DNA of 42,224 nt from a virus (taxonomy: Duplodnaviria > Heunggongvirae > Uroviricota > Caudoviricetes): IMG/VR virus record IMGVR_UViG_3300031853_000004, positions 101,319 through 143,542 of that record; one strand, 5' to 3'. The position numbers were made by a program, and so were the translations under genes. This document shows, piece after piece, positions 6,001 through 41,682 of the stretch. Position 1 is the first letter of the stretch. Each line of letters begins with the position of its first letter. The notes beneath the pieces were generated by a model. That model saw only the letters and a program-made list of their open reading frames with translations. It made no database searches and had not been told where the DNA came from.

Positions 6001-8328
6001 AGCAAGACTAGATTCTCCGGTCATTAAAGTTCTCAATAAATTATCTATATTAACTCTACCAGAAGTTAAACCTTGAATAGATTCAATAAATTTAGTAGCT
6101 TCCAGCGTTAATTCTCTAAGCTCTTCTTCATTTTTATTAGCGCTACCTTCAAAATTAATCATTTTATTTTCAAGATTTTCAAGCTGTTCAGCCATTTGAT
6201 TAAATTCTTCTGTTTGTAAAACACCAGCTTCTCTAAAATCTTGTAAAGCATTACTGGCACCATTAAAAACATTTTTTAATTTATCTGCCTTTTGATCCAT
6301 TGTTAAAGTACCAGAGTTAAAATCTTTTTGCATTTGAATAACAGTTAATAAAGATTCTTTAAACTCTATTGCAGCACTTTTACCATCTTTAAAATTTTGC
6401 ACATATTGTTTTAAATTTTCTCCTTGAGAAAACTGACTTAACATTTCTGCAAGAGCCTGCGTATCTTTTCCCAAAGCAGTATCCTGTACTGCGGCTCCAA
6501 CTATACCGGCTGCTCGTATAGCTTTTTCCATTTTTTCAGTTTCTTGTGCTACCATATTAGAATTATTAGTAATATCTAATAAAATTCTATTATATTGTTC
6601 TGCTTGCTGCTCCGACATATTAGGCAAAGCCTCTTGTCCTTTCATAATAAAATCTACAGTATTTTTAGAAGCTTGTCCTTGAAATGTTGTCGGATCAGTA
6701 AAACCAAGTTGTCTTAATGTATCAGGAACATTTAAAGCATTATCTTTTCTAGCTTGTTCTATTTTACGATTTATATTGGCATCATTAATCATTTGAGCCA
6801 TATTGTTACTAAATAATTTACCAAATAAAGCGACTACTCCTGTTAAAACAGTTTGTCCTCCACCAAGAGAATCAACTAATTTCTTAATTAAATCTACAAA
6901 ACTAGTTAAAGCATCCACTGCTGGATAAAAATTATCTGGATTAAAAACTGAATTAAATAATCCTTCTAATGTTGCTTGAAGCTTTGCTGTTCTCCCAGCC
7001 ATTGAATTAATATATTCTTCATTCATTTGATCAAGAGTACCACTTGCATTTAATGAAGCTTTTGCGTATTGATCATACATTTCAGGAGAATTCATTAAAG
7101 CTTCAAAACGACCTAATTGATATTTTCCTGCTACAGTTTGCGCTATCGCAGCTTTTTGAGTAGAATCTAGATCACTTCAGATCTCCATCATATCTTCTAT
7201 CATATCACCAACACTGCGCATTTTACCTTCTGCGTCAAGGACTTCAACTCCTATTCCTTGAAGGGCGCTGGTAACTTTGCCAAGATCAACACCGTCTTCT
7301 AAAGTTTCTCCAGCTTTTAAATCAGAAAATCTAGCATATAAAGTTTTAAGACCATTGCCGATTTGTTCTGGAGCTTCTTTTGTTACAGACTCTATAGTTG
7401 CAATTTGAGCATTTAATTGTTCAAGACTAACATCAACAGTTGCTGCGGTAGAAGCTGCTTTTTGAGAAGCTTTTGCGAGTTCTTCTACGTCTGCTGCTGA
7501 TACATTTGCTACCATGGCTCACGAATCAAGTGCTTTTTCTAATTCCTCCATACTTCCTGATAAATGATATGCATTCATTAAAGCAGTAATTTGATCAGAG
7601 GTAGTCGCAGAATCTTGCTCTGAAGCATTAGCTAATTTAATTGATAATTCTGCTAATTGACTTGACTGTTGAAGATCAAATCCTTGCTGAGCAAATACTT
7701 GAGATCCTCGTGTAACATCTACCGTAGTTGCTCCTAAAGCCTTAGCAGCTTCATTAGCGCTTTTAGCATATTCATTCATCTGTTCACGAGAATAGTCTGT
7801 TACTAACATAATTTGAGTTAAAGAATCATCCAATTCTTTAACATAGTCAACACTTTGATGTAAAGAATTTAACATAGCACTAAAACCACTTGATACTACG
7901 CCTCATCTAACAGTATTAGATATAGTATTAAACATTTTATCTACTGTTGTAGAGCTACGTTTTAATCCTGTATCAATTTTACCAATTTGGCCAAGAAGAT
8001 TATTCATAGCAACTTGCCCTTGAGCACCGCTATTTTTAAAAGCTATCCCTAAATCTTTTGCTGTAACTCCCGCAGCCTGTATTTGTGCTTTAAATTTTGA
8101 TAAATCTAACATACCAAGAGAAGAGTTAAAAGAAGAAGACAGTGCTTTGTTCAATTCTTGTAGCTGTCTAATTGGTTCATTAAAATTTAATTTATCATTA
8201 AGATCGTTGCCTGATAATCTTCTTAAAGAGGCTTCAACTTCTCTAATTTGAGTTTGTAATTGCGTTAAGCCACTTGAATCAAGCTTAGTTGATATAGAAT
8301 ATTCTATAGTATTTGAATATTTCGCCAT
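1..8328 (-). CDS. Tape measure protein (>2775 aa, C-terminus runs off the window); requires TGA=Trp
   Basis: ATG at 8328 with RBS GAGGAGG. One frame open to position 1 with no TAA/TAG and 18 in-frame TGA (7903, 7519, 7177, 5872, 5842, 4999, 4747, 3859, 3574, 2101, 1873, 1657, 1075, 1048, 943, 418, 250, 202), joining nine track ORFs. TMP-type motifs NTVR(W)G, EI(W)SDLDSTQKAAIAQTVAG and FDTGGYTGD(W)NGDGRIAMLHQKELVLN; Gly-rich linker near 3120-3210. Confidence 0.93.
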
Positions 8329-14222: not shown

Positions 14223-15345
14223 TTCCACCTCCTGTGAACGATCCAATAGTAATAGGTAAAGTATAAATTTCACCTTCATCTGTTGTACAAGTTAAATTAA
14301 AAGAACCTTTACGGCCAGTCAATACTTCAATGTCACAAGATTTACCATCTTGTCTATTAATTCTAACTAAATCAGAATCAATCGTATAAGTTCCCGTACC
14401 TTTATAACTAACCAAACTGTAAGGATATATAACATCAGGACCAACAATGTAATTTCTCTGTCAGTCAATTGTACATTCTAAATTATAATCTCCATATGAT
14501 ATAGTATAATTACCTACTGCACCATCAAAAACTTTAATTTTACACATATTTCCATTATTAAGGACTTCAAGTATTCGCACTCTAGGATTACCAGTTACCT
14601 TCCATTCATATTTTTTCTTTAAATATGATTTAGGAATATAATATCCTACTTCCGAATCTTGCGATACAACTGTTTCACCAATAATGACAGAATCCTCTGT
14701 TTCTTTTTTAATTTCAGGCAATTCTGCTATTGGATTATCATAATACTCCTGAACCTCTAATTCAAGAATACCAGGAACAGAGATGCTGTCTGTTACTTGA
14801 ACTTCCCAAATATGATTATCAACTTTTATATGTGTAAAACGCTTAAAAAATTCTCGTGTTTGTGGAGTTAATTTTATATAAATTGTGCCAGATAGATTTA
14901 ATTCATTCACGTTAATTGCATTCTTAATAAACCAACGAAGATCTGTTTCAGTTGGTCCTTGAAAATACACTCAATATGATGTTCCATCAATCTCTAACGT
15001 ATATCTACAACGAATTATCTCAGATCTGAGGTAAGCAGTTTCTGTCAAAACTGGCAAATAAATCATTCAATGAGTTCCATCTGCCAATACTTCAAAAACG
15101 TCTCCAGATTCTAATCCAGAATCAAATTCAACAGATACAAATTTTTTATCATAATCTGCTTTTAATCCACCAGAGTCGGTGGTTATTAAAGCTGGTCAAG
15201 CAGAATGCAAAGGAGTTTTAATTAATCTAGAATTATAATCATTTTTTAATGCTCATTGTAAACTTTTTAATTTTTGTTTATTAATGCGGCCAAGCTGATC
15301 TCCACCTAACGCTGTAAGTCTTGCTGCCAAACTATTCCGTGACAT
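14194..15345 (-). CDS. Putative head-tail connector/closure protein (383 aa); 5 in-frame TGA
   Basis: RBS AGGAGG, ATG 15345. TGA at 15253, 15196, 15067, 14971 and 14461 join track ORFs 14461..14970 and 14194..14415; beta-rich, Ig-like C-terminus; TAA stop. Confidence 0.75.
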
Positions 15346-15357
15346 AGGCCGCACCTC

Positions 15358-15663
15358 CTAATCAATATCTTTTTTAAGTTTATCAATCAAAGAACAGCAT
15401 TCAAAGATAGTTCTACGATAAGCCATAAAATCATCTGAAAGTTGTTCAAGTCCTTTTAATTTAAAAATTAAAGAAACTAAATTTTCAAGTTTAGGAAAAC
15501 AACCCTGCATACCTAAAAATTCTATAATAACAGTTTCTAAAAGTTTATCTCACTCTTGATTTTCTTCTAACATTGGGAGAAGTTTAAAAGTAAGTTTTTG
15601 TTGTTTATTTAAAATGTTGATAATTGTATTTTTATCAATTGAAATATTATATATCGTTTCCAT
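15358..15663 (-). CDS. Hypothetical head-tail module protein (101 aa); 1 in-frame TGA; absent from the ORF track
   Basis: METIYNISID...LPMLEENQE(W)DKLLETV...YRRTIFECC...; TGA 15550; the TAG stop overlaps the next RBS. Confidence 0.75.
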
Positions 15664-15664
15664 G

Positions 15665-16168
15665 TTACACCCTTTCAAATCGTTTGTCAGGTGCGTCATA
15701 GTTCATAATTTTATACATAGATGATCTAACATGTCCATCAGAATCGTATTCACGTCTAGAGTATAAACGTTGCATTTTAAGAGCCTTCAATTCATAAGAT
15801 TCTTTTAGACTTATTAATTGTTTTATATGAGCTGCTTGACTGGTAAACTTAAAATCTGATCCACTGTATTTTTGTCTAACGAGATCAACATTAGCTATTT
15901 GATACCCAAGCCATTCACATATCATATAAAGTCTAATAATAGTCATTTCAGTAGATGTTAATTTAACTGTAAAAGATTGATTATCAAAATCAAAAACAAA
16001 AGGTGTTTCTCAGCGAGGAAACTCAAAACTATTAATTGCTGCAACTAATAATTCTTGTAAAACCTCTTTTGTATCTTCTTCAGTCATTTCCATGTACATG
16101 TCATCAGTAATTCCCGCAAGGAAAAAATCATACATATCTTGAAAAGAGGTAGGTGATTCTTCTGCCAT
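15665..16168 (-). CDS. Putative head-tail adaptor protein (167 aa); 1 in-frame TGA
   Basis: RBS GGAGG, ATG 16168. TGA 16010 joins the N-terminus to track ORF 15665..15946 (EWL...KYSGSDFKFTSQAAH). Function inferred from position. Confidence 0.72.
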
Positions 16169-16192
16169 ATTCCTCCCTCCTTTTCTTTGTCT

Positions 16193-16744
16193 CTATTGGA
16201 CTCTGCGTCCTTGTGGTTTCACTTCTTTATTTGAACCAACTCGGCGAGTTTTACGCTCTGTTGGAGTATCTTCAACTAAACTATTTAGCTCTTCCGCATA
16301 ACTAATCATTTTTGTAATATCATGACCGGTTTCTTGCTGAATTAAACGATGCTTATTAATATCTGGAATTTGAAGAATTACTGCTTGACTTACAATAGTA
16401 TCAACAATTCCAATAGGAGCAAAATCCAAAGCATCTGCTAATTCATCAATAGAACCATTAAGTAAAACTCTTTTAACATCATTTAAAGTCCAAGAGTACT
16501 CATGAGTAAAAAGATCTTCTGAAATACCAAACTCTGCGGCGAGGTCTTGATTCTCTACTGCAAGATAATCTTGTAATAGCTTTGAACCTCCTGGAAGGTA
16601 CCAAAGTTGACGCAATTCAGCGGCAGTTAGCTCTTTTGTTTCAAAACCTCTAAAGACTCTTCGTACTCGTAGTTCTGGAATTGTAAAAGCTACTATTTGG
16701 TCTGTTAGGTTGCGGACTCGAACTGTAATATCATCTTTAATCAT
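16193..16744 (-). CDS. Conserved head-module hypothetical protein (183 aa), no TGA
   Basis: RBS AAGGAG, ATG 16744; open in the standard code; TAG stop; both Trp codons are TGG. Confidence 0.8.
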   Translation of the reverse strand: MIKDDITVRVRNLTDQIVAFTIPELRVRRVFRGFETKELTAAELRQLWYLPGGSKLLQDYLAVENQDLAAEFGISEDLFTHEYSWTLNDVKRVLLNGSIDELADALDFAPIGIVDTIVSQAVILQIPDINKHRLIQQETGHDITKMISYAEELNSLVEDTPTERKTRRVGSNKEVKPQGRRVQ

Positions 16745-16779
16745 TTTCAATCTCCTTTTAATCTCCATTTTATAAAATA

Positions 16780-16800
16780 GGGGAGGAAGAAATCCTCCCC
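16780..16800 (-). terminator. Intrinsic terminator ending the capsid transcript
   Basis: GGGGAGGA-loop-TCCTCCCC followed by TATTTT. It lies after the capsid-extension ORF, not after the MCP. Confidence 0.75.
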
Positions 16801-16832
16801 TTTAATTAAATTAATGTTCGGATGTAAATCCT

Positions 16833-18095
16833 TTATTCTGGTATTACCTCATATCAGTCGCCATTCTTTTCAGACTTGAATCCATCCGCAACAAAGTTTG
16901 TATTAGCTCCTTCTGCTAAATTGTTGGCAGGGTTAAATTTATAGAACTTACCGCCTTCAACTAAAATACTAGAAGGACTATATATACCACCTGCGTAAGC
17001 AGATTCATTCATGTCAAGCATATTTAAACCATACTTAAAGTTACCATTTGAATCATAAGTTTCGTTGGTATCAGGAACTATATTAAAGACTCCACCTTTA
17101 ATTACGGCATCCCCGCCATAATATTTATAGTTTGCTCCAGACCCTCCTGGTTGTCCAGCTTGTAAGACACTGGTTTTACCAGTAAAATTACCAGATTCAA
17201 GAATTAACTTAGAAGGATAGTCTCCTGCTAGGTGACCAACTAAGAACGCATAATCTCTACCATATTCAATAGCACCCGTACCGACACTATCCTTCACAGT
17301 TATCTCACCATAATCTACTCTTAAAGCATAACTTGAAGAAGCAGAACCTGTAAGAGTATGTCCATTAAGGTCAAAAGTTAATTTAAAATCTTGCACTCTT
17401 GGAGCTGTACCTGAAAATCAAATTGACTCTGTAGTATCATTATTTAAAACTATAGTATCTCCATTTTGAGCTGCTTTAAAAGCATTTCCTAATGTTTTAT
17501 AATATACTCCATTAATAGAGGCAGATGGAATATAAAAAGTTATTTTAGCTTCCGCATACTTTCCATCTTTACTTACTCTAAAAATTGCTTGACCTGGCTG
17601 TAAAGGTGTAATAAAAATATCATCTTCTATTTTTTCAACTATCGCTGCATCTTGATTATTAGATGTAATTATGTAATCAGAAATATTAACTATATTATTA
17701 TTAATTTTTAACGTAGTTATTTTTTCTGCACCATCTGTTAATAATTTATCTGTGCTATCTGTTAAAATAGTTGCCGCAGGCGAATAATTAACAGGAACGG
17801 TGTCATAAACAGCATTATCTTTTATAAGTTTGATAATAGTTGTTCCTACACTAAGATCTGTTGAATTGGCGCGAGTTATATTTAAAGTTCCTACGCCTTT
17901 AGAAGTAAAGTTTGTATTACCTGATTGTATTAAAACACCAGAGTTATCAATTAATGACCAACCTTCTTTATCCTCTGCGGTCAAAGGCTCTCCATCGGCG
18001 CGACTAAGCGTTATTTTCAAAGGAGTTGACGCAGAGGTTAAAGAATAGTTATCTGCATTAAAACTTACCTGATAATTCTCGTCAGGATTTACCAC
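16833..18095 (-). CDS. Ig-like plus adhesin/beta-helix-like domain protein (420 aa), in frame with the MCP (possible readthrough extension); 2 in-frame TGA
   Basis: TGA 17418 and 16854 join the track ORFs; TAA at 16833. Motif ASINGVYYKTLGNAFKAAQNGDTIVL...LTFDLNGHTL resembles bacterial surface-protein repeats. Only a weak AGGA precedes the GTG at 18095. Confidence 0.7.
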
Positions 18096-18104
18096 CGGGT
18101 CGTC

Positions 18105-19196
18105 CTAATCACCGATCTCCTTGCGGCGAGTACGTGTATCATCAAGTGAAGAATCTTTGTAAGCGCAAATCCAATTAATTTGACCCATATGAGCGACGGT
18201 ACCAACGCCTACCTTCTGATACATCTGAACATCGGTTGACCAATCTTCATTGTTATCAGTGGTACGAAGTAGAAGTTGCCCCTCAAAGACAATTTTAACA
18301 GGCTTCTCTGTGCCAGTAGGAATAATATAAGCAGTTGAAGGATTAACGACAAAATTAGTATTTGTCTCATCAACAAGACCCTGCTGTAGAATTACAACAT
18401 TATGACCCTTATAATTACCGAGCCAACCATCTGCCCACATACGATCTTTCATAGCGTCAGACCAACGACCCTCAGAAGGAATCATCTTATTGGCAAACGC
18501 TTGTGTACAATAAATTGTTGCACGGCCATACTGATCAGCAATAGCGAGTAACTCATCCATTACTTCCTCGTCAAAGCCATTGACAGTTGCTTTATTAACC
18601 TCAGGAATGTCGGCAATCATAGCAGTAAGAGCCGCAGCTACCTCACGAGCAATGAAATAGTCAAACTCCTCCATGATAATCTGAGAATAATCAGCGAGTG
18701 ACCAACGTCCGTCAAGAACTTCTTCGAAGCCAATGCGGACTGCGCTGGTGATAGCACCAGTCTCAACTGTCATCTCAGCACCATCAAGCATGAATGTCTC
18801 GTAACGAGCTGCAAGCGCGCCACGGGTAACAAATGTACGAGCACGACGCTTAGAAGCTTCAGTTACACGAATCTTAAATACTGCACGATCACCCTGAGCA
18901 ATATGCTCAACATCAGCAAATTGCATATACATTTTATCGACACGGGCAGGAATAACCTCTTCAAGCACATGAGAAACTAGAGCAAAAACCTCGTCACGAT
19001 TAGCTTTCCAAGTATAATAATCTACTTTACCGCCATTATAACCAAGTCTTTCAGAAAGCTCTTTTGCAAGAACTTCATTCACTTGTTCAATAGAATACTG
19101 TTCATTCTTACCATTAAAGGAGAAATTAACAGAAGTGCCTTTATCTGCACGAACTGCCTGTTTAGCAAGCATTTCTAAATCTTTAAAATCTAGCAT
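18105..19196 (-). CDS. Major capsid protein (363 aa), no TGA
   Basis: Strong RBS GGAGG. Located after the protease/scaffold and accessory genes; size and codon bias of a highly expressed gene; 7 Trp, all TGG; ends in TAG. Confidence 0.8.
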   Translation of the reverse strand: MLDFKDLEMLAKQAVRADKGTSVNFSFNGKNEQYSIEQVNEVLAKELSERLGYNGGKVDYYTWKANRDEVFALVSHVLEEVIPARVDKMYMQFADVEHIAQGDRAVFKIRVTEASKRRARTFVTRGALAARYETFMLDGAEMTVETGAITSAVRIGFEEVLDGRWSLADYSQIIMEEFDYFIAREVAAALTAMIADIPEVNKATVNGFDEEVMDELLAIADQYGRATIYCTQAFANKMIPSEGRWSDAMKDRMWADGWLGNYKGHNVVILQQGLVDETNTNFVVNPSTAYIIPTGTEKPVKIVFEGQLLLRTTDNNEDWSTDVQMYQKVGVGTVAHMGQINWICAYKDSSLDDTRTRRKEIGD

Positions 19197-21053: not shown

Positions 21054-22601
21054 CTAACTTTCGGACTCTTTATTACGTCTTGTTTTGTCAGACTGCTCAT
21101 CCTCTGGTAATGGAGGACGTCCGCCCTGACTACCCGCAGATGGTTTATTACCGGTTTGTGTTTTAGATTCTCCTACTGTACCAGCTGTAGTAGTTGAAGA
21201 CGCAGGAGGTCTAAATACTTCATCTAAATGAAGAATATCATTCTCAAATATTGCGGTTGATAACACAACACTTTGAGATTGTCCAAGAGCAACTTGAGGT
21301 AAAAGTTTAGAGAAACCAATTTGAGTTTGCTCTTTATAGACTTTGGATAAATCTTTATAATTATAACCGGTAGTTGGTAACATCTGCACGGTGTAACGAA
21401 GCTTTTTAACATTTTTATTAAAAGGCTTCAAGAGACTCTCTGCATAACTTCCAAATTGAAGTAGCAAATCAGTCATTGTGGCTTCGTCATTCACAATAGA
21501 TTTCTCTAAAGCGAGGTTGCCAGTGGTATTAAACAACATTTGACTAGCGCCAGCTTCATTGTATACAGTTCTTTCCACTTTATCTAACTGGTCCGCGGCC
21601 GACATATTAGAATGATCTGATAAATCTTCTACAGCAACGTCCGCAAACGTAGTTAACACATCAACACCAATTGTTTCTCCAAGCATAGCAACAGCATTTT
21701 TATGTAATTCTTTACCTTCTTCTATATCAAAAACAGGAATACTATTTTTATCCATAGGAAGTTGTTGAACTACTAATCTTAAAAGTTGCTGTTCCATTTT
21801 CTTTTTATCTAACTCTTGAGCATCTTCTAAGTCTAATAACTTGGGAACAATTGAAAAGAAAAATGGGGTATCTGAATTATTTAAATTAAATTTTACCGCT
21901 TTTTCAGCATCTAAACCAATTCATCCATCATTCTTAGTGTCTTCTCCTTCAAGAGCGCCTTTTTTGTATTTTATATATCCTTGTTGGAACTCTTTTGGAA
22001 AAGCTTTTAATACTTTCATTCTTTTCTTTGTAGTTGTAAAACAATCATCGAAGAAACGCACATTAAATTCAATAATAGGATTACCATTTAATTTAAAATT
22101 ACTGCGCGAATATTTAATAGGAAGCTCCTGTAAAGAAATCATAGTATCATTTCCTACTTTATAACCATAGTAACAACCATTTTTTATTACTTTAAGCGCA
22201 ATTTCTCCAAATAATTTTTTTAAATTACACCTATCCAAGAGAAGAACAGATTTCATTCAGCCTTCAATAATTTTATTATCTTTGATTTTTTCGTCTATGC
22301 GGATAGGCGTGACGAATCAATCATAACGATATAGATACGCCATATATCTACAAAGTCGAGAATAAATACCACTTACTGTAAAAAAGTAATTTGAAATTGC
22401 TCGCATCTCTTCTAAATTATTGGATTGAATTGCGCGTTCTCAACGAAGCCGCAAATCATTTTTTCGAGCTCGTCTTTCATTAACTTTTTTAAGGTCTAAA
22501 AGAACTTCATCTCTGTAAGCAGTACCACCAATTCTCATTTTGTTAAAATCATAAGAAGGACGCTGTTGTTCAGTCGCAGAGACCAAACGAATATCATTCA
22601 T
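21054..22601 (-). CDS. Portal protein (515 aa); 4 in-frame TGA
   Basis: RBS AAGGAGG, ATG 22601. TGA at 22440, 22317, 22257 and 21921; motif SGIYSRLCRYMAYLYRYD(W); no TGG; TAG stop; position between TerL and protease. Confidence 0.82.
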
Positions 22602-26066: not shown

Positions 26067-27149
26067 TTATTTTTCCTCCTTCCCATTGCGGCACTCTCTA
26101 CATTGACTATAAAAACCTTCTTTATTGGAATTTTTAGGGAAGAAGAAAGGATGTGCAGGCATGACCTTCCCGCACTTTGAACAAGTTTTCCAATTTAAAG
26201 AAGAATCTGTTTTATAATTGTTTAAGTAATGTTTTAAAATGTAGCGTTTTTGTACTTCTTTAGAGATTAATTTGGGAATGCGTCTTCTTCAAATAGAAGA
26301 ATAATACTGTTCTGTATGATTAACTCCATAATGTTTTAAAACTAATTCTTGAATTTGTTTGTTAGAGCGTCCATCTACTTTTCAAATTAAAATATCTCAA
26401 AGCATTGGGTATTTTTGTTCTAAAGCTGCGGATGCTACCTCTTCTAAATCTATTAAGTGTCAAAGCATATCACTTTCTAAAAGATATCAAGATTCTTCTT
26501 TTAGTGGTTGGTAGTATTGAAGAAGAAAAGATACGTGATCTGGATTTAAAAGAGTGAGTAGATCATCGCTATATGGGTATCCATCTTTTCAGTAAACTGT
26601 TTCTGGAATATCAATATTTGCTAAATATTGTGTTTTATTAGTGGATATGTTGAGTGCCATTTTATGAGAACTTTTTATTAGATAAAGTTGTTTTCAAGTT
26701 TCTATAATAGTTTTTTTTAAGTTTTTGCGGCGTTGACCTGTTGCGTGTTGATATTGTCATTCTAATTTTTTTATTACGTTAAGTCCTTCAGCTATGCCTG
26801 GAATATTTTTTATATCTTCTTTAGTTAGAGGATCTTTATTGTCAAGTTTCATTTCTTTGTTATCACACATGATAGAATAAAGTCCATCTTCTCCATTTTC
26901 TAATCTATCAATTAAACCTTCATAAGATATCTGTCTTTTGTCTATTGTATGTTCTCTATTGGGAGTTGTTATTGGATAATCTTCTTTACGTTCTTTTTTA
27001 GTTTGATTTTTATCTCGGGTAAAAAGTAGATAATCCCCCAACAGAGAAAGTTCATTAGAGTTTGGGGTATATTTTGATAAAAGTTTATCAACAAATTCTT
27101 TGCGGGATTCGATGGTTTGTAAGGAATAATCTAAAAACAAGGTTCGCAC
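26067..27149 (-). CDS. First gene of the late block: putative transcriptional regulator with HTH-like segment and C-terminal Zn finger (about 360 aa); 8 in-frame TGA
   Basis: TGA at 26757, 26694, 26589, 26487, 26460, 26397, 26382 and 26289; TAA 26067; C-terminal CSKC...CREC; HTH-like DILI(W)KVDGRSNKQIQELV. Start is GTG 27149 or TTG 27140. Confidence 0.72.
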
Positions 27150-27322: not shown

Positions 27323-27541
27323 ATGAAAGAATATATGAGTAAATTTACTGATCTTGCAGACGATGCGAATGCGATCGAAAAATTGTTTGAGGAACTTTAT
27401 AAAGATTGTAAGGGAAATGCGAAAAAAGAGAAGGCTTTATATGATATCCTAGAAAATCAGATGTGGAAAAGTTGGAGAGATAAAACTATTGATGCAAGAA
27501 CAGCTTATTTGTATAAAAGATTAATGGATAGGATTTCATAA
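27323..27541 (+). CDS. Hypothetical protein (72 aa)
   Basis: RBS AAGGAG; TAA stop; Trp=TGG. Confidence 0.8.
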   Translation: MKEYMSKFTDLADDANAIEKLFEELYKDCKGNAKKEKALYDILENQMWKSWRDKTIDARTAYLYKRLMDRIS

Positions 27542-27819
27542 TCAAAAACTGAAAAATGATTTAGAAGATTTTTTGTGCGTGGCCCCGACTCACCCTTAAT
27601 ACTTTTATGTAATAGCCCGAATGTACCCGCCCTATTAGATAGCGCACGATGTATTGGCGCACGATGCTATAGCGTGCCGTTATCATGTGTAACTGTACAA
27701 AATACTCTAAGAAATAAATGTGTGCAGATTGTGAAGAATTGTGTTTCTCAGCTGTTCGTCTGTAGGCGCGTGTTATTATTAAGTCGTAAAGAAAAACTCC
27801 AGCAGAGAGGAACACAAAA

Positions 27820-29274: not shown

Positions 29275-29972
29275 AAGAAGCCTTTTAAGGCTTCTTTTTT
29301 TTATGTTGACGCACATAAAAGACTAAACCAATTCTAAGCGATTCTGACAATCGCACTTATTAAAATAAGCAAAAAAGCAAATAGGCCCTTAGAATGGCTT
29401 AGAATGGCTCAAACGCTAAAAAATTGTGGAGGCGACTAGAAAAAACCGACAGAAAAAAGTTTTCAACATCGGGGTTTAAAACGTCTCACAATCGCTCTAT
29501 TTTGTTAAAAACTCGTATCCTGAAATTGAATATAAAAGCTTTTCAACAAAGTTGTTAACATCAAACAATTAAATAATTACTTTTACTATTGGACATAAAA
29601 ATATTAATTAATAAGTTCATGATAAAAGACTAAACAATTGAATATCAAAACATTAACCAACAACATAAAAGCTATATCACATAAAAATTATCGAGGTTGG
29701 GCGAAATTTTACCACACCGCGCTAGTAAAAGTCAAATGAAGATTTTGCAAATGCGAGTTTATGCACATAATCTTCACAAAGTCCTAAAATATCAGATAGT
29801 TAACAAAAAACATTACAAATGTTATGTACCAAACATATATATATTTACTATCTGCTAAAAAACACCTATGTTTACCTGCTGTTTCACAAAACGTCCACAA
29901 CTAACGATTCTCGGTTGCAAACATTTTAAATAGGCGTATAGTATATATTAACAACGAAAGAAAGGAATTGAA

Positions 29973-40375: not shown

Positions 40376-40859
40376 AGGAATCTCCTTTTCTCTCTCAACT
40401 TCTTTACTTATATTATACTATATCTTTTAGAAGAAGTCAAGAACTTTTTTTTGAAAATGAAAAATTTTTTTCTTAAAGATTAGAAATGAAATTGATCTAG
40501 GGAAGTTGAAAATGAAAATCCTTTTACCATTCCAAGAGAAGTTGGAAATGAAAATGCATAAAGGGATCCTACGAAGTCTCTTCCGCAATTCCTTCTTCCG
40601 CGCTTTCTCCCATGCGGAAGCCTTCTCGAAGTTCGCTTGAATCTTCTTTCGCTTTATTTCATTGCTTTTCCTTTGTTTTTTTCTCCATATGTTCTTTTGC
40701 TTAAATATTTTATTTATCTTCTTTGCTTTCGCTTTTCAAGCTCTCTTCTCGAAGATCGCCTTCTATTATAGCATATTTTTTTCTAAAAGTCAATATTTTA
40801 AGCTAAAAGTTTACAAAATTGTAACATTTCTCTCAAAGCATGACTTGTGAAATATTAGG

Positions 40860-40932
40860 TGGGCCTGGTTCGAATCGAACGAACGATCCATCGATTATGA
40901 GTCGATTGCATTAACCACTATGCTACAGGCCC
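40860..40932 (-). tRNA. tRNA with CAT anticodon, probably tRNA-Ile2 (lysidine type, reads AUA)
   Basis: Cloverleaf GGGCCTG...ATCGA-CTCATAA-TCGAT...CAGGCCC-A. C4-G69 and C5-G68 are the known E. coli TilS determinants. No complete encoded CCA. Confidence 0.85.
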
Positions 40933-40942
40933 AAGAAAAATC

Positions 40943-41019
40943 TGGTGGGAACAGTCCGATTTGAACGAACGATCTTCCGATTATCGGTCGGATGCTCTAG
41001 CCAACTGAGCTATGTTCCC
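40943..41019 (-). tRNA. tRNA-Ile(GAT)
   Basis: Cloverleaf, anticodon arm TCCGA-CCGATAA-TCGGA, encoded CCA. Confidence 0.92.
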
Positions 41020-41025
41020 ATATGA

Positions 41026-41098
41026 TGAAACCTCTGGGACTCGAACCCAGAACCTGTGAATTAAAAGTTCACACTTTAACCAATTAAGCTAAGGTTTC
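41026..41098 (-). tRNA. tRNA-Lys(TTT)
   Basis: Cloverleaf, anticodon arm GTGAA-CTTTTAA-TTCAC; followed by TCA instead of CCA. Confidence 0.88.
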
Positions 41099-41104
41099 AT
41101 ATTT

Positions 41105-41160
41105 TAGTACTTGTTAGTCTAAATCAGCAACACCACGTGAAGGTCAGTACTATAGTTGCC
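41105..41160 (-). ncRNA. HDV-like theta ribozyme abutting the tRNA-Leu 3' end
   Basis: GGCAAC TA TAGTACT G ACC TTCACGT GGT GTTGCT GATTTAGA CTAACA AGTACTA: P1 GGCAAC/GTTGCT with G1.U, P2 TAGTACT/AGTACTA, P3 ACC/GGT with a 7-nt L3, J4/2 CTAA. G1 immediately follows the tRNA discriminator. Confidence 0.85.
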
Positions 41161-41242
41161 TGCGGGATGTGAGATTCGAACTCACACGCTATCAAGCACT
41201 GCATTTTGAGTGCAGGGCGTCTGCCAATTCCGCCAATCCCGC
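41161..41242 (-). tRNA. tRNA-Leu(CAA)
   Basis: Type II cloverleaf, anticodon arm CTGCA-CTCAAAA-TGCAG, long variable arm; no encoded CCA. Confidence 0.92.
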
Positions 41243-41252
41243 CTATAAAACG

Positions 41253-41411
41253 TTATACTTCCTGTACGATCAACATGTCAAGGGAAGGCCGCACTTCTAC
41301 AATCTCGTATATACGTCCAAGAGAAGAGAAAATTTGTCCAACCTGCGGCACTCCGTAAAAGAGAACACTCTGAACGCTAGATCCATCACGATAAACAAAA
41401 TGACGAGCCAT
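41253..41411 (-). CDS. Small hypothetical protein (52 aa)
   Basis: RBS GGAGG overlapping the upstream gene end; MARHFVYRDGSSVQSVLFYGVPQVG...; TAA stop. Confidence 0.65.
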   Translation of the reverse strand: MARHFVYRDGSSVQSVLFYGVPQVGQIFSSLGRIYEIVEVRPSLDMLIVQEV

Positions 41412-41413
41412 AG

Positions 41414-41608
41414 TTAAACCTCCACATCAAACGCAAAATCATCAGTCTCAGCATAAAATGCATCTATATGACCACCATAAGGTCTAATAGCATCATAGGC
41501 TTTCCATTTAGCGAATTCCTCTGTAATGGGTTCCATTGATTCAAAACTAATTAAATCTCCATCAAGAGTTTCGCCAGTGAAATAATAGTAATCGCGAGGT
41601 GGTTTCAT
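41414..41608 (-). CDS. Hypothetical protein (64 aa), paralog of 34438..34641
   Basis: RBS AAGGAG, ATG 41608; ends GGHIDAFYAETDDFAFDVEV. Confidence 0.75.
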   Translation of the reverse strand: MKPPRDYYYFTGETLDGDLISFESMEPITEEFAKWKAYDAIRPYGGHIDAFYAETDDFAFDVEV

Positions 41609-41653
41609 TTGTAACTCCTTTACTATTGGGTTCCTCCCTCTCAATCTATATAT

Positions 41654-41682
41654 ATTATACTATATTTTTTTTAGACTGTCAA
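41654..41682 (-). promoter_or_regulatory. Consensus sigma70 promoter for the small-ORF/tRNA operon
   Basis: TTGACA-17 nt-TATAAT. Confidence 0.8.

Follow-up and report, generated by a model that had tools for sequence, protein, structure and literature searches.

The DNA analysed here, a stretch of 42,224 nt (the window), forms the last 42 kb (G000:C1:101319-143542) of the virus record IMGVR_UViG_3300031853_000004, a linear genome of 143,542 bp (CheckV 100%, GC 32%) with the terminase large subunit, the portal and other PHROG matches of a tailed phage. Coordinates are positions in the window unless prefixed G000, in which case they follow the numbering of the whole record. On the minus strand of the window, a tRNA-Leu(CAA) gene of type II, with a long variable arm, was located at 41161-41242 by both ARAGORN and Rfam (RF00005, 55.4 bits). 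It ends at its discriminator base, A41161, and is followed by the trailer GGCAAC in place of an encoded CCA. The next 56 nt (41160-41105) can be parsed as a minimal ribozyme of the hepatitis delta virus (HDV) type, of the class known in phages as theta ribozymes, and very probably form an active ribozyme that matures the tRNA-Leu 3' end. A linker of 6 nt (AAAUAU, 41099-41104), which would be the 5' leader for RNase P, separates this element from tRNA-Lys(UUU) (41026-41098; trailer UCA, no CCA), whose first base is G41098 in the Rfam alignment. The ribozyme and the linker make up the whole of the Leu-Lys spacer (~61 nt), with no bases left over. A sequence-only reading of the window had proposed a minimal HDV-type nested double pseudoknot here, cleaving between 41161 and 41160 at a G1.U pair, after the discriminator of a CCA-less tRNA-Leu and ahead of a tRNA-Lys. 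The coordinates, the strand, the junction and the wobble pair were all recovered by ARAGORN, Rfam and the structural parse, and the tRNA-Lys indeed begins 6 nt past the ribozyme.

The parse of the 56 nt is complete and in register. Reading 5' to 3' on the minus strand, the 5' strand of P1 (GGCAAC, 41155-41160, G1 being 41160) is followed by J1/2 (UA), the 5' strand of P2 (UAGUACU, 41146-41152), an unpaired G (41145), the 5' strand of P3 (ACC, 41142-41144), the loop L3 (U-UC-ACGU, 41135-41141), in which U41140 and C41139 form the 5' strand of P1.1, and the 3' strand of P3 (GGU, 41132-41134). Then come the 3' strands of P1 (GUUGCU, 41126-41131) and P1.1 (GA, 41124-41125), L4 (UUUAGA, 41118-41123), J4/2 (CUAACA, 41112-41117) and the 3' strand of P2 (AGUACUA, 41105-41111). 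All the pairs of P1 (6/6) and P2 (7/7) are formed, the pair at the cut site being the wobble G41160.U41126. P1.1 has two pairs, G41125-C41139 and A41124-U41140 (UC/GA), and P4 is reduced to the loop L4, as in theta ribozymes. The predicted catalytic residue is C41117 at the first position of J4/2, the same cytosine of the CTAA motif that had been singled out earlier. An equivalent register of P2 (AGUACUG/AAGUACU) contains a terminal G.A mismatch, and J4/2 is then CUAAC. The unpaired purine between P2 and P3 is found likewise in two ribozymes of related phages (L067 and L070). The sequence supports a theta-type minimal HDV-like ribozyme with G1 right after the discriminator of a CCA-less tRNA-Leu, and scission is predicted between A41161 and G41160.

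Two controls were carried out for chance. The core pattern, ACCTNCNCGYGGT-N6-7-GR-N5-8-CTAA, matched once in the window against 0.00 matches expected from 100 dinucleotide shuffles. It matched once also in the whole 143.5-kb genome, and the reversed control gave 0. When the core was kept fixed and the flanks (20 nt upstream and 12 nt downstream) were shuffled in 200,000 trials, and read with a permissive 60-register parser, all 13 P1 and P2 pairs appeared in 1e-5 of the trials, and at most one mismatch was seen in 3.6e-4. Chance resemblance is excluded by these controls. When a generic HDV descriptor was run genome-wide, the window site was the sole match with a GC-rich P3 and a short L4; variants of the descriptor in which the catalytic C was replaced by A, G or U matched only unrelated AU-rich sites.

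Theta ribozymes were described by Kienbeck et al. 2024 (Nat Commun 15:1559, PMC10879173) as minimal HDV-like ribozymes, from Caudoviricetes of the gut, with a cleavage site within 5 nt of the 3' end of a phage tRNA, the distance being at most 1 nt in 77% of cases. The window ribozyme would cut at distance 0 from A41161. The theta architecture (P1 of 6-7 bp starting from G1, a short J1/2, P2 of 7 bp, P3 of 3 bp, L3 of 7 nt, a two-pair P1.1 and a short L4) is found in it throughout, and so is a J4/2 of the form CNRA, with at most one extra nt and the catalytic C first (C41117 in CUAA(C)). Both have the G1.U wobble, a tRNA-Leu partner and a Caudoviricetes-type phage. In the supplementary entries that could be compared, e.g. 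tRNA-Leu0024_theta0009, tRNA-Leu0112_theta0016 and theta-1786, the domain order, the lengths and the field structure are the same as those of the window ribozyme. The core of theta-1786 (ACC-U-UC-ACGU-GGU, GA, UUUAGA, CUAA) is identical to that of the window ribozyme letter for letter, and among the listed entries the theta-1786 core, UC/GA with UUUAGA, recurs 105 times. The core of theta-2210 is close; UC/GA and the L4 UUUAGA are common to both entries (listed part of Supplementary Data File 2). That a UC/GA P1.1 lies outside the published theta motif was also considered, as it occurs in 0/1439 cores among the listed entries of Data File 1; this was refuted by theta-1786 and theta-2210 of Data File 2. 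Some of the listed entries pair P2 with a purine.A mismatch at its inner end and a 5-nt J4/2. The alternative register of the window ribozyme (AGUACUG...CUAAC-AAGUACU) needs one G.A mismatch in P2, and listed entries show an analogous A.A mismatch with CTAAT; judged by this analogy, the window ribozyme is likely to match the RNArobo descriptor of these authors.

Four theta ribozyme-tRNA pairs, two of them with tRNA-Leu, cleave in vitro in a Mg2+-dependent manner and are inactivated by a C-to-U mutation (PMC10879173). The window ribozyme differs from the published ones in that the sequences of its P1 and P2 are new, its P1.1, U-A/C-G, is of the minority type, the P2/P3 junction contains a G that is unpaired (or in a G.A mismatch), and J4/2 has 5-6 nt. 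By its sequence it is a new member of the published theta family. Its context, with a tRNA-Leu partner in a phage using genetic code 4, is already covered by that work, of which it is a further well-controlled example; the published picture of ribozyme-made phage tRNA 3' ends is unchanged. The nested double pseudoknot and the J4/2 cytosine as general acid are those of the HDV/CPEB3 family and of the minimal HDV-like drz-Mtgn ribozymes from the human microbiome (ref. 18 in PMC10879173), from which the window ribozyme differs by a P4 that is a 6-nt loop and by a function tied to a tRNA 3' end.

Relatives of the ribozyme were looked for in two ways. When IMG/VR was scanned for the UC/GA core, 17 loci were obtained, and these fell into two groups. 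At 10/17, P1 and P2 are complete or nearly so and are made of unrelated sequences, whereas the remaining 7/17 paired poorly (at most 5/7 per helix), had no adjacent tRNA and look like chance matches. Only among the well-paired loci was a tRNA found at distance 0 from G1: tRNA-His (L002/L006/L018), tRNA-Pro (L004) and tRNA-Trp (L010). Separately, a search with the portal protein gave 26 related contigs (55-72% identity). In these, together with the record of L002 (n = 27), a pattern that left P1, P2 and P1.1 free had 8 matches, and its reversed control 0. In this set, which involved no selection for pairing, P1 is paired 7/7 and P2 6-7/7 in all the matches (8/8).

Two of the related records (G018 and G022) have a tRNA-Leu(CAA) ending at A73, followed by G1 of a canonical CC/GG theta ribozyme and then by tRNA-Gln. 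Their tRNA-Leu aligns with that of the window, whereas P1 and P2 of the ribozyme are wholly different; common to both are an unpaired purine ahead of P3 and the junction CUAAYA. Three others (G017, G026 and G027) carry the UC/GA form, with a CUAAYA junction, 3' of tRNA-His. Among 13 distinct IMG/VR ribozymes, including that of the window, three to five types of standard pair and no non-standard pair occur at every position of P1 and inner P2, while G1.U is invariant. The first P1.1 pair is U-A in 8, C-G in 4 and U.G in 1. The columns A17-C19, which form the ACC strand of P3 (13/13), U20, C22, C24-G25, G27-U29 and C44-A47 are common to the window ribozyme and the 12 others. It may be noted that the pairs were counted from the structural parse, as the MAFFT alignment of the 13 ribozymes is not structure-consistent at its ends. 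In one phage clade, tRNA-Leu(CAA) thus retains a theta ribozyme while its helices, and even a P1.1 pair, turn over by compensatory change. A distant blastn search of the locus against GenBank phages matched unrelated tRNA-Leu genes only. When IMG/VR was scanned with the tRNA-Leu 3' half, the matches were all to unrelated tRNAs, most of them followed by CCA.

A census of 3' trailers in the genome showed that CCA is encoded in the tRNAs for Thr, Gly, Ser and Ile and in an opal suppressor. Leu(CAA) and Pro(UGG) are the only CCA-less tRNAs followed by HDV-like folds, which fits the report that CCA is encoded in only 4.5% of the partner tRNAs of theta ribozymes (PMC10879173). A search of the genome for more theta ribozymes had been suggested earlier, and a relaxed descriptor run on the whole genome returned two further HDV-like candidates. 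One of them, at G000:C1:27416-27479 (-) (= L033:9416-9479), lies directly after tRNA-Pro(UGG) (27480-27552, no CCA) and was parsed as GACAUGA-CA-GGAUGAU-ACC-UCUACGC-GGU-UCAUGUC-AU-(P4 hairpin)-CUAAA-GUCAUCU. In place of the usual G.U it has a G1-C pair; only one pair of P1.1 is good, and P4 is a true hairpin. With the Rfam model HDV-F-prausnitzii it scores 23.9 bits, below the gathering score of 44. A full-length ROOL RNA (RF03087, 284 bits) lies just upstream of this tRNA-Pro and its fold, at G000:C1:27575-28233 (-) (= L033:9575-10233). The other candidate, at G000:C1:29759-29809 (-) (= L033:11759-11809), is in a gene-free array of non-coding RNA with no recognised tRNA adjacent; it has a GCC/GGC P3 and one P1.1 pair, and its L3 (UUCACGU) is that of the window ribozyme. 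Two YrlA (Y RNA-like) matches below threshold, with tRNA-like modules, were seen at L033:8065-8179 (-) (37.4 bits) and L033:12964-13058 (-) (22.7 bits).

The mechanism that would follow from the active-ribozyme reading is as follows. A single transcript, probably started at a promoter-like site at ~41682-41654, would contain two small open reading frames (ORFs), tRNA-Leu, the ribozyme, tRNA-Lys, tRNA-Ile and tRNA-Met. The RNA past tRNA-Leu would fold into the nested double pseudoknot of P1, P1.1, P2 and P3, with P4 as a loop, and C41117, together with a bound Mg2+, would catalyse the attack of A41161, through its 2'-OH, on the phosphate that lies 5' of G41160. In the HDV family, cleavage 5' of G1 leaves 2',3'-cyclic phosphate and 5'-OH ends. 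The cleavage in the window phage is inferred, and the nature of its ends is taken from this established chemistry: tRNA-Leu(CAA) would be released co-transcriptionally, ending at A73 with a 2',3'-cyclic phosphate, and the ribozyme would keep the 5'-OH. A73 is the base expected as an identity element by leucyl-tRNA synthetase. RNase P would free the 5' ends of the tRNAs and, at tRNA-Lys, discard the ribozyme together with the 6-nt linker. Finally, the cyclic phosphate of tRNA-Leu would be removed and CCA added, and the tRNA could then be charged.

Such a cyclic-phosphate end needs healing, and the genome supplies candidate enzymes for this. An RNA-repair cluster was located at G000:C1:14785-19030 (-) (= L032:14785-19030), with Pnk-HDIG (below) at G000 15950-16972, a metallophosphoesterase at 17476-18237 and an RlaP-like nucleotidyltransferase at 18230-19030. 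It encodes an Rnl1-like RNA ligase (phrog_562, E = 5.5e-47; TIGR02308), a 340-aa protein, Pnk-HDIG, which joins a P-loop polynucleotide kinase domain to a C-terminal HDIG motif (YHDIGK), a 145-aa ORF with no assigned function, a metallophosphoesterase and a 265-aa Pol-beta nucleotidyltransferase (NTase) that is RlaP-like. For the kinase part of Pnk-HDIG, the best PDB matches were to the Clostridium thermocellum Pnkp kinase domain. Another RNA ligase (PF09414, phrog_548) is encoded at G000 6724-7659. The NTase itself had no match in searches of Pfam, NCBIfam and PDB sequences, and it was recognised as RlaP-like only through homologues (~47% identity) that carry PF10127. Its AlphaFold (AF2) model, with a predicted local distance difference test (pLDDT) score of 96.3, is nearest to ANT(4') and HalB NTases, at a template modelling (TM) score of ~0.46. 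An identification of the NTase as a CCA-adding enzyme was rejected, as it had no family match and the nearest structures to its model are ANT(4') and HalB, not CCA-adding enzymes. The NTase gene is present in 5/6 ribozyme-bearing related records and in 1/2 large records without a pattern match. As a separate observation, an isolated canonical theta ribozyme (P1 GAGAUAC; loci L064 and L071) lies ~1.5 kb from the RlaP-like NTase gene in two relatives (G018:C1:60254-62664 and G022:C1:10847-13144).

The genome was also searched for the CCA-adding enzyme family PF01743 (PolyA_pol), the 2H phosphoesterase family PF13563 and the DRB0094 ligase TIGR02306, and none was found. Hence the suggestion made earlier, that a phosphatase or a CCA enzyme might be encoded elsewhere in the genome, held for Pnk-HDIG and metallophosphoesterases but not for a CCA-adding enzyme or a 2H phosphoesterase. 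The window genome also differs in this respect from those with published theta ribozymes, in which the CCA-adding enzyme and the DRB0094 ligase are both enriched (PMC10879173). Host addition of CCA is the default for a phage without a canonical CCA-adding enzyme, and it is most likely that CCA is added by the host enzyme here. End healing could be due to host enzymes, or to the phage Pnk-HDIG or metallophosphoesterase.

The cluster resembles T4-type tRNA repair (Pnkp and Rnl1) and RlaP (PF10127; PMC12776372), with an Rnl1-like ligase, Pnk-HDIG, a metallophosphoesterase and an RlaP-like NTase together. These activities are those for healing a 2',3'-cyclic phosphate and extending an RNA 3' end, and their classical role is the repair of nuclease-cut tRNAs. 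In a 2025 preprint, RlaP was described as extending the 3'-OH ends of RNA by 1-2 nucleotides in tRNA repair (PMC12776372). Taken together, a largely host-independent route to the tRNA 3' end can be pictured, in which the theta ribozyme cuts, Pnk-HDIG or the metallophosphoesterase opens the cyclic phosphate and the RlaP-like NTase helps to rebuild the tail. We regard this as rather unlikely. That the cluster acts on the ribozyme product at all is our inference, and classical repair of nuclease-cut tRNAs explains its genes equally well. When co-occurrence of Pnk-HDIG with the ribozyme was examined in 8 related records, kinase-only matches were found in 2, and the fusion is not conserved. Were the host-independent route true, the cluster at G000 14785-19030 would be part of the ribozyme system and not only an answer to host anticodon nucleases. 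A link of the cyclic-phosphate product to the phage RNA-repair genes is possible and is the less ordinary thread of this locus; in the main text of the theta ribozyme paper the cyclic phosphate is mentioned 0 times (PMC10879173).

Several observations weigh against an active ribozyme. The spacer had no Rfam match at the gathering score or at E<=10 when 501 nt were searched, and it fails the gathering threshold of the Rfam HDV-type families (e.g. RF00094 and RF02682); these models are of subgroups with a P4, and the pairs of a pseudoknot are outside what they can score. Nested minimum free energy folding of the 56-mer, by a method that cannot represent pseudoknots, was no better than for shuffled sequences (z = 0.54). 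P1 has only 6 bp, the AU-rich P2 is a palindrome, P1.1 contains a U-A pair in place of the commoner C-G, and the P2/P3 junction holds a G (unpaired or in a G.A mismatch); the reaction might be slowed by any of these features. Among the listed entries of the published supplementary tables (PMC10879173), there was no exact match to the sequence. Finally, 234/240 cells are paired in the P1/P2 table of the 13 ribozymes, a figure that is biased upward as the table was made after dropping non-pairing matches. The 10/7 split of the IMG/VR loci and the 8-match set are free of this selection bias.

The shortness and AU-richness of the RNA, together with the missing Rfam support, might be taken to mean that a tRNA spacer resembles a ribozyme by accident. 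Against this stand the expectations of ~0 for the core pattern and 1e-5 for the flank shuffles, the exact abutment to the tRNA and the homologous arrangement in related phages, and a chance origin is effectively refuted. The U-A pair of P1.1, the unpaired G and the short P1 would also suit a theta ribozyme that is decaying or is now an inactive relic; the 3' end of tRNA-Leu would then be the work of host RNase Z or exonucleases. The phage may contain degenerate copies, as P1.1 is weakened and G1 pairs with C in the fold after tRNA-Pro. However, the window ribozyme retains all the positions, the catalytic C included, at which the 13 ribozymes and the published entries do not vary, and its UC/GA and UUUAGA core is the one that recurs as theta-1786 in the listed entries. 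P1 and P2, moreover, are perfectly paired, while drift would erode pairing. A relic is thus very improbable.

A ribozyme may also be active without 3' maturation being its main job. It might time or limit the supply of tRNA-Leu, with the cyclic-phosphate end acting as a brake until an end-healing enzyme appears, or it might separate the mRNA-tRNA portion of the transcript that lies upstream from the tRNAs downstream. Regulatory and concentration-based roles were discussed by Kienbeck et al., and 42% of the published theta occurrences are away from tRNAs (PMC10879173). HDV-like folds away from tRNAs occur also in the window genome (G000 29759-29809) and in its relatives (L064/L071), and the phage Pnk-HDIG and phosphoesterase genes could gate maturation. 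On the other hand, the predicted cleavage site is placed exactly 3' of the discriminator in a tRNA that lacks CCA, both here and with four other independent tRNA partners; such precision is needed for 3' maturation but not for a mere insulator. The Pnk-HDIG fusion, as noted, is not conserved in the ribozyme-bearing relatives. A mainly regulatory role therefore appears improbable, and maturation of the tRNA-Leu 3' end by an active theta-type ribozyme is the explanation that we favour.

The recoding of TGA claimed by the sequence-only reading was borne out. With code 4 the longest ORF has 2812 aa in place of 1270, ORF coverage in the late region reaches 0.93-0.99, and the minus-strand late block becomes continuous, with one 2776-aa ORF containing 18 TGA codons. 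At three conserved Trp columns of the portal alignment (98, 118 and 232), TGA occurs in 9-14 and W in 13-18 of the 27 sequences. By these alignments it is confirmed that TGA is read as Trp in the window phage. The clade contains both TGA-recoded members, having 1-4 in-frame TGA codons at conserved Trp columns, and members in which such codons are absent (portal, window 21054-22601 (-); L038-L063).

ARAGORN found no UCA tRNA in the whole genome; it missed the opal suppressor, and a tRNA-Thr as well. The opal-reading tRNA lies at ~G000 26453-26544 (-) (= L033:8453-8544), with the anticodon loop CUUCAAA, an encoded CCA and no ribozyme, and has a weak tRNA-Sec-like match in Rfam (25.2 bits). Thus in this TGA-recoded phage the HDV-like folds serve ordinary CCA-less tRNAs (Leu and Pro), whereas the suppressor has its CCA and no ribozyme. 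The link of theta ribozymes to suppressors fails here, which argues against a general theta/code-switch link. The earlier reading had stressed the association with suppressor tRNAs. Its observation of a non-suppressor partner stands, but the novelty it implied does not: suppressors are only ~20% of theta-linked tRNAs, tRNA-Leu is among the three commonest partners, more than 70% of theta matches sit behind tRNA-Met, suppressor tRNAs or tRNA-Leu, and code 4 is predicted in 6.0% of the phages with tRNA-linked theta ribozymes (PMC10879173).

Beyond tRNA-Lys, the array continues on the minus strand with tRNA-Ile(GAU) (40943-41019; the tRNA spans 41019-40946 and its encoded CCA extends to 40943) and tRNA-Met(CAU) (40860-40932, trailer CCU). 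ARAGORN and Rfam concur on all the four tRNA genes (Leu, Lys, Ile and Met). Ahead of the array on the same strand are two small ORFs (41414-41644 and 41253-41411), the stop codon of the second being 10 nt ahead of tRNA-Leu. Upstream of these is a sigma-70-type promoter-like site, TTGACA-17 nt-TATAAT (41654-41682), whose putative function is suggested by its consensus match (12/12). Two further near-perfect sigma-70 consensus sites, at 40765-40793 (11/12) and 40412-40440 (11/12), flank the tRNA array together with it, all three on the strand of the array. The presence of these flanking sites suggests that the tRNA block may be transcribed early by the host RNA polymerase.

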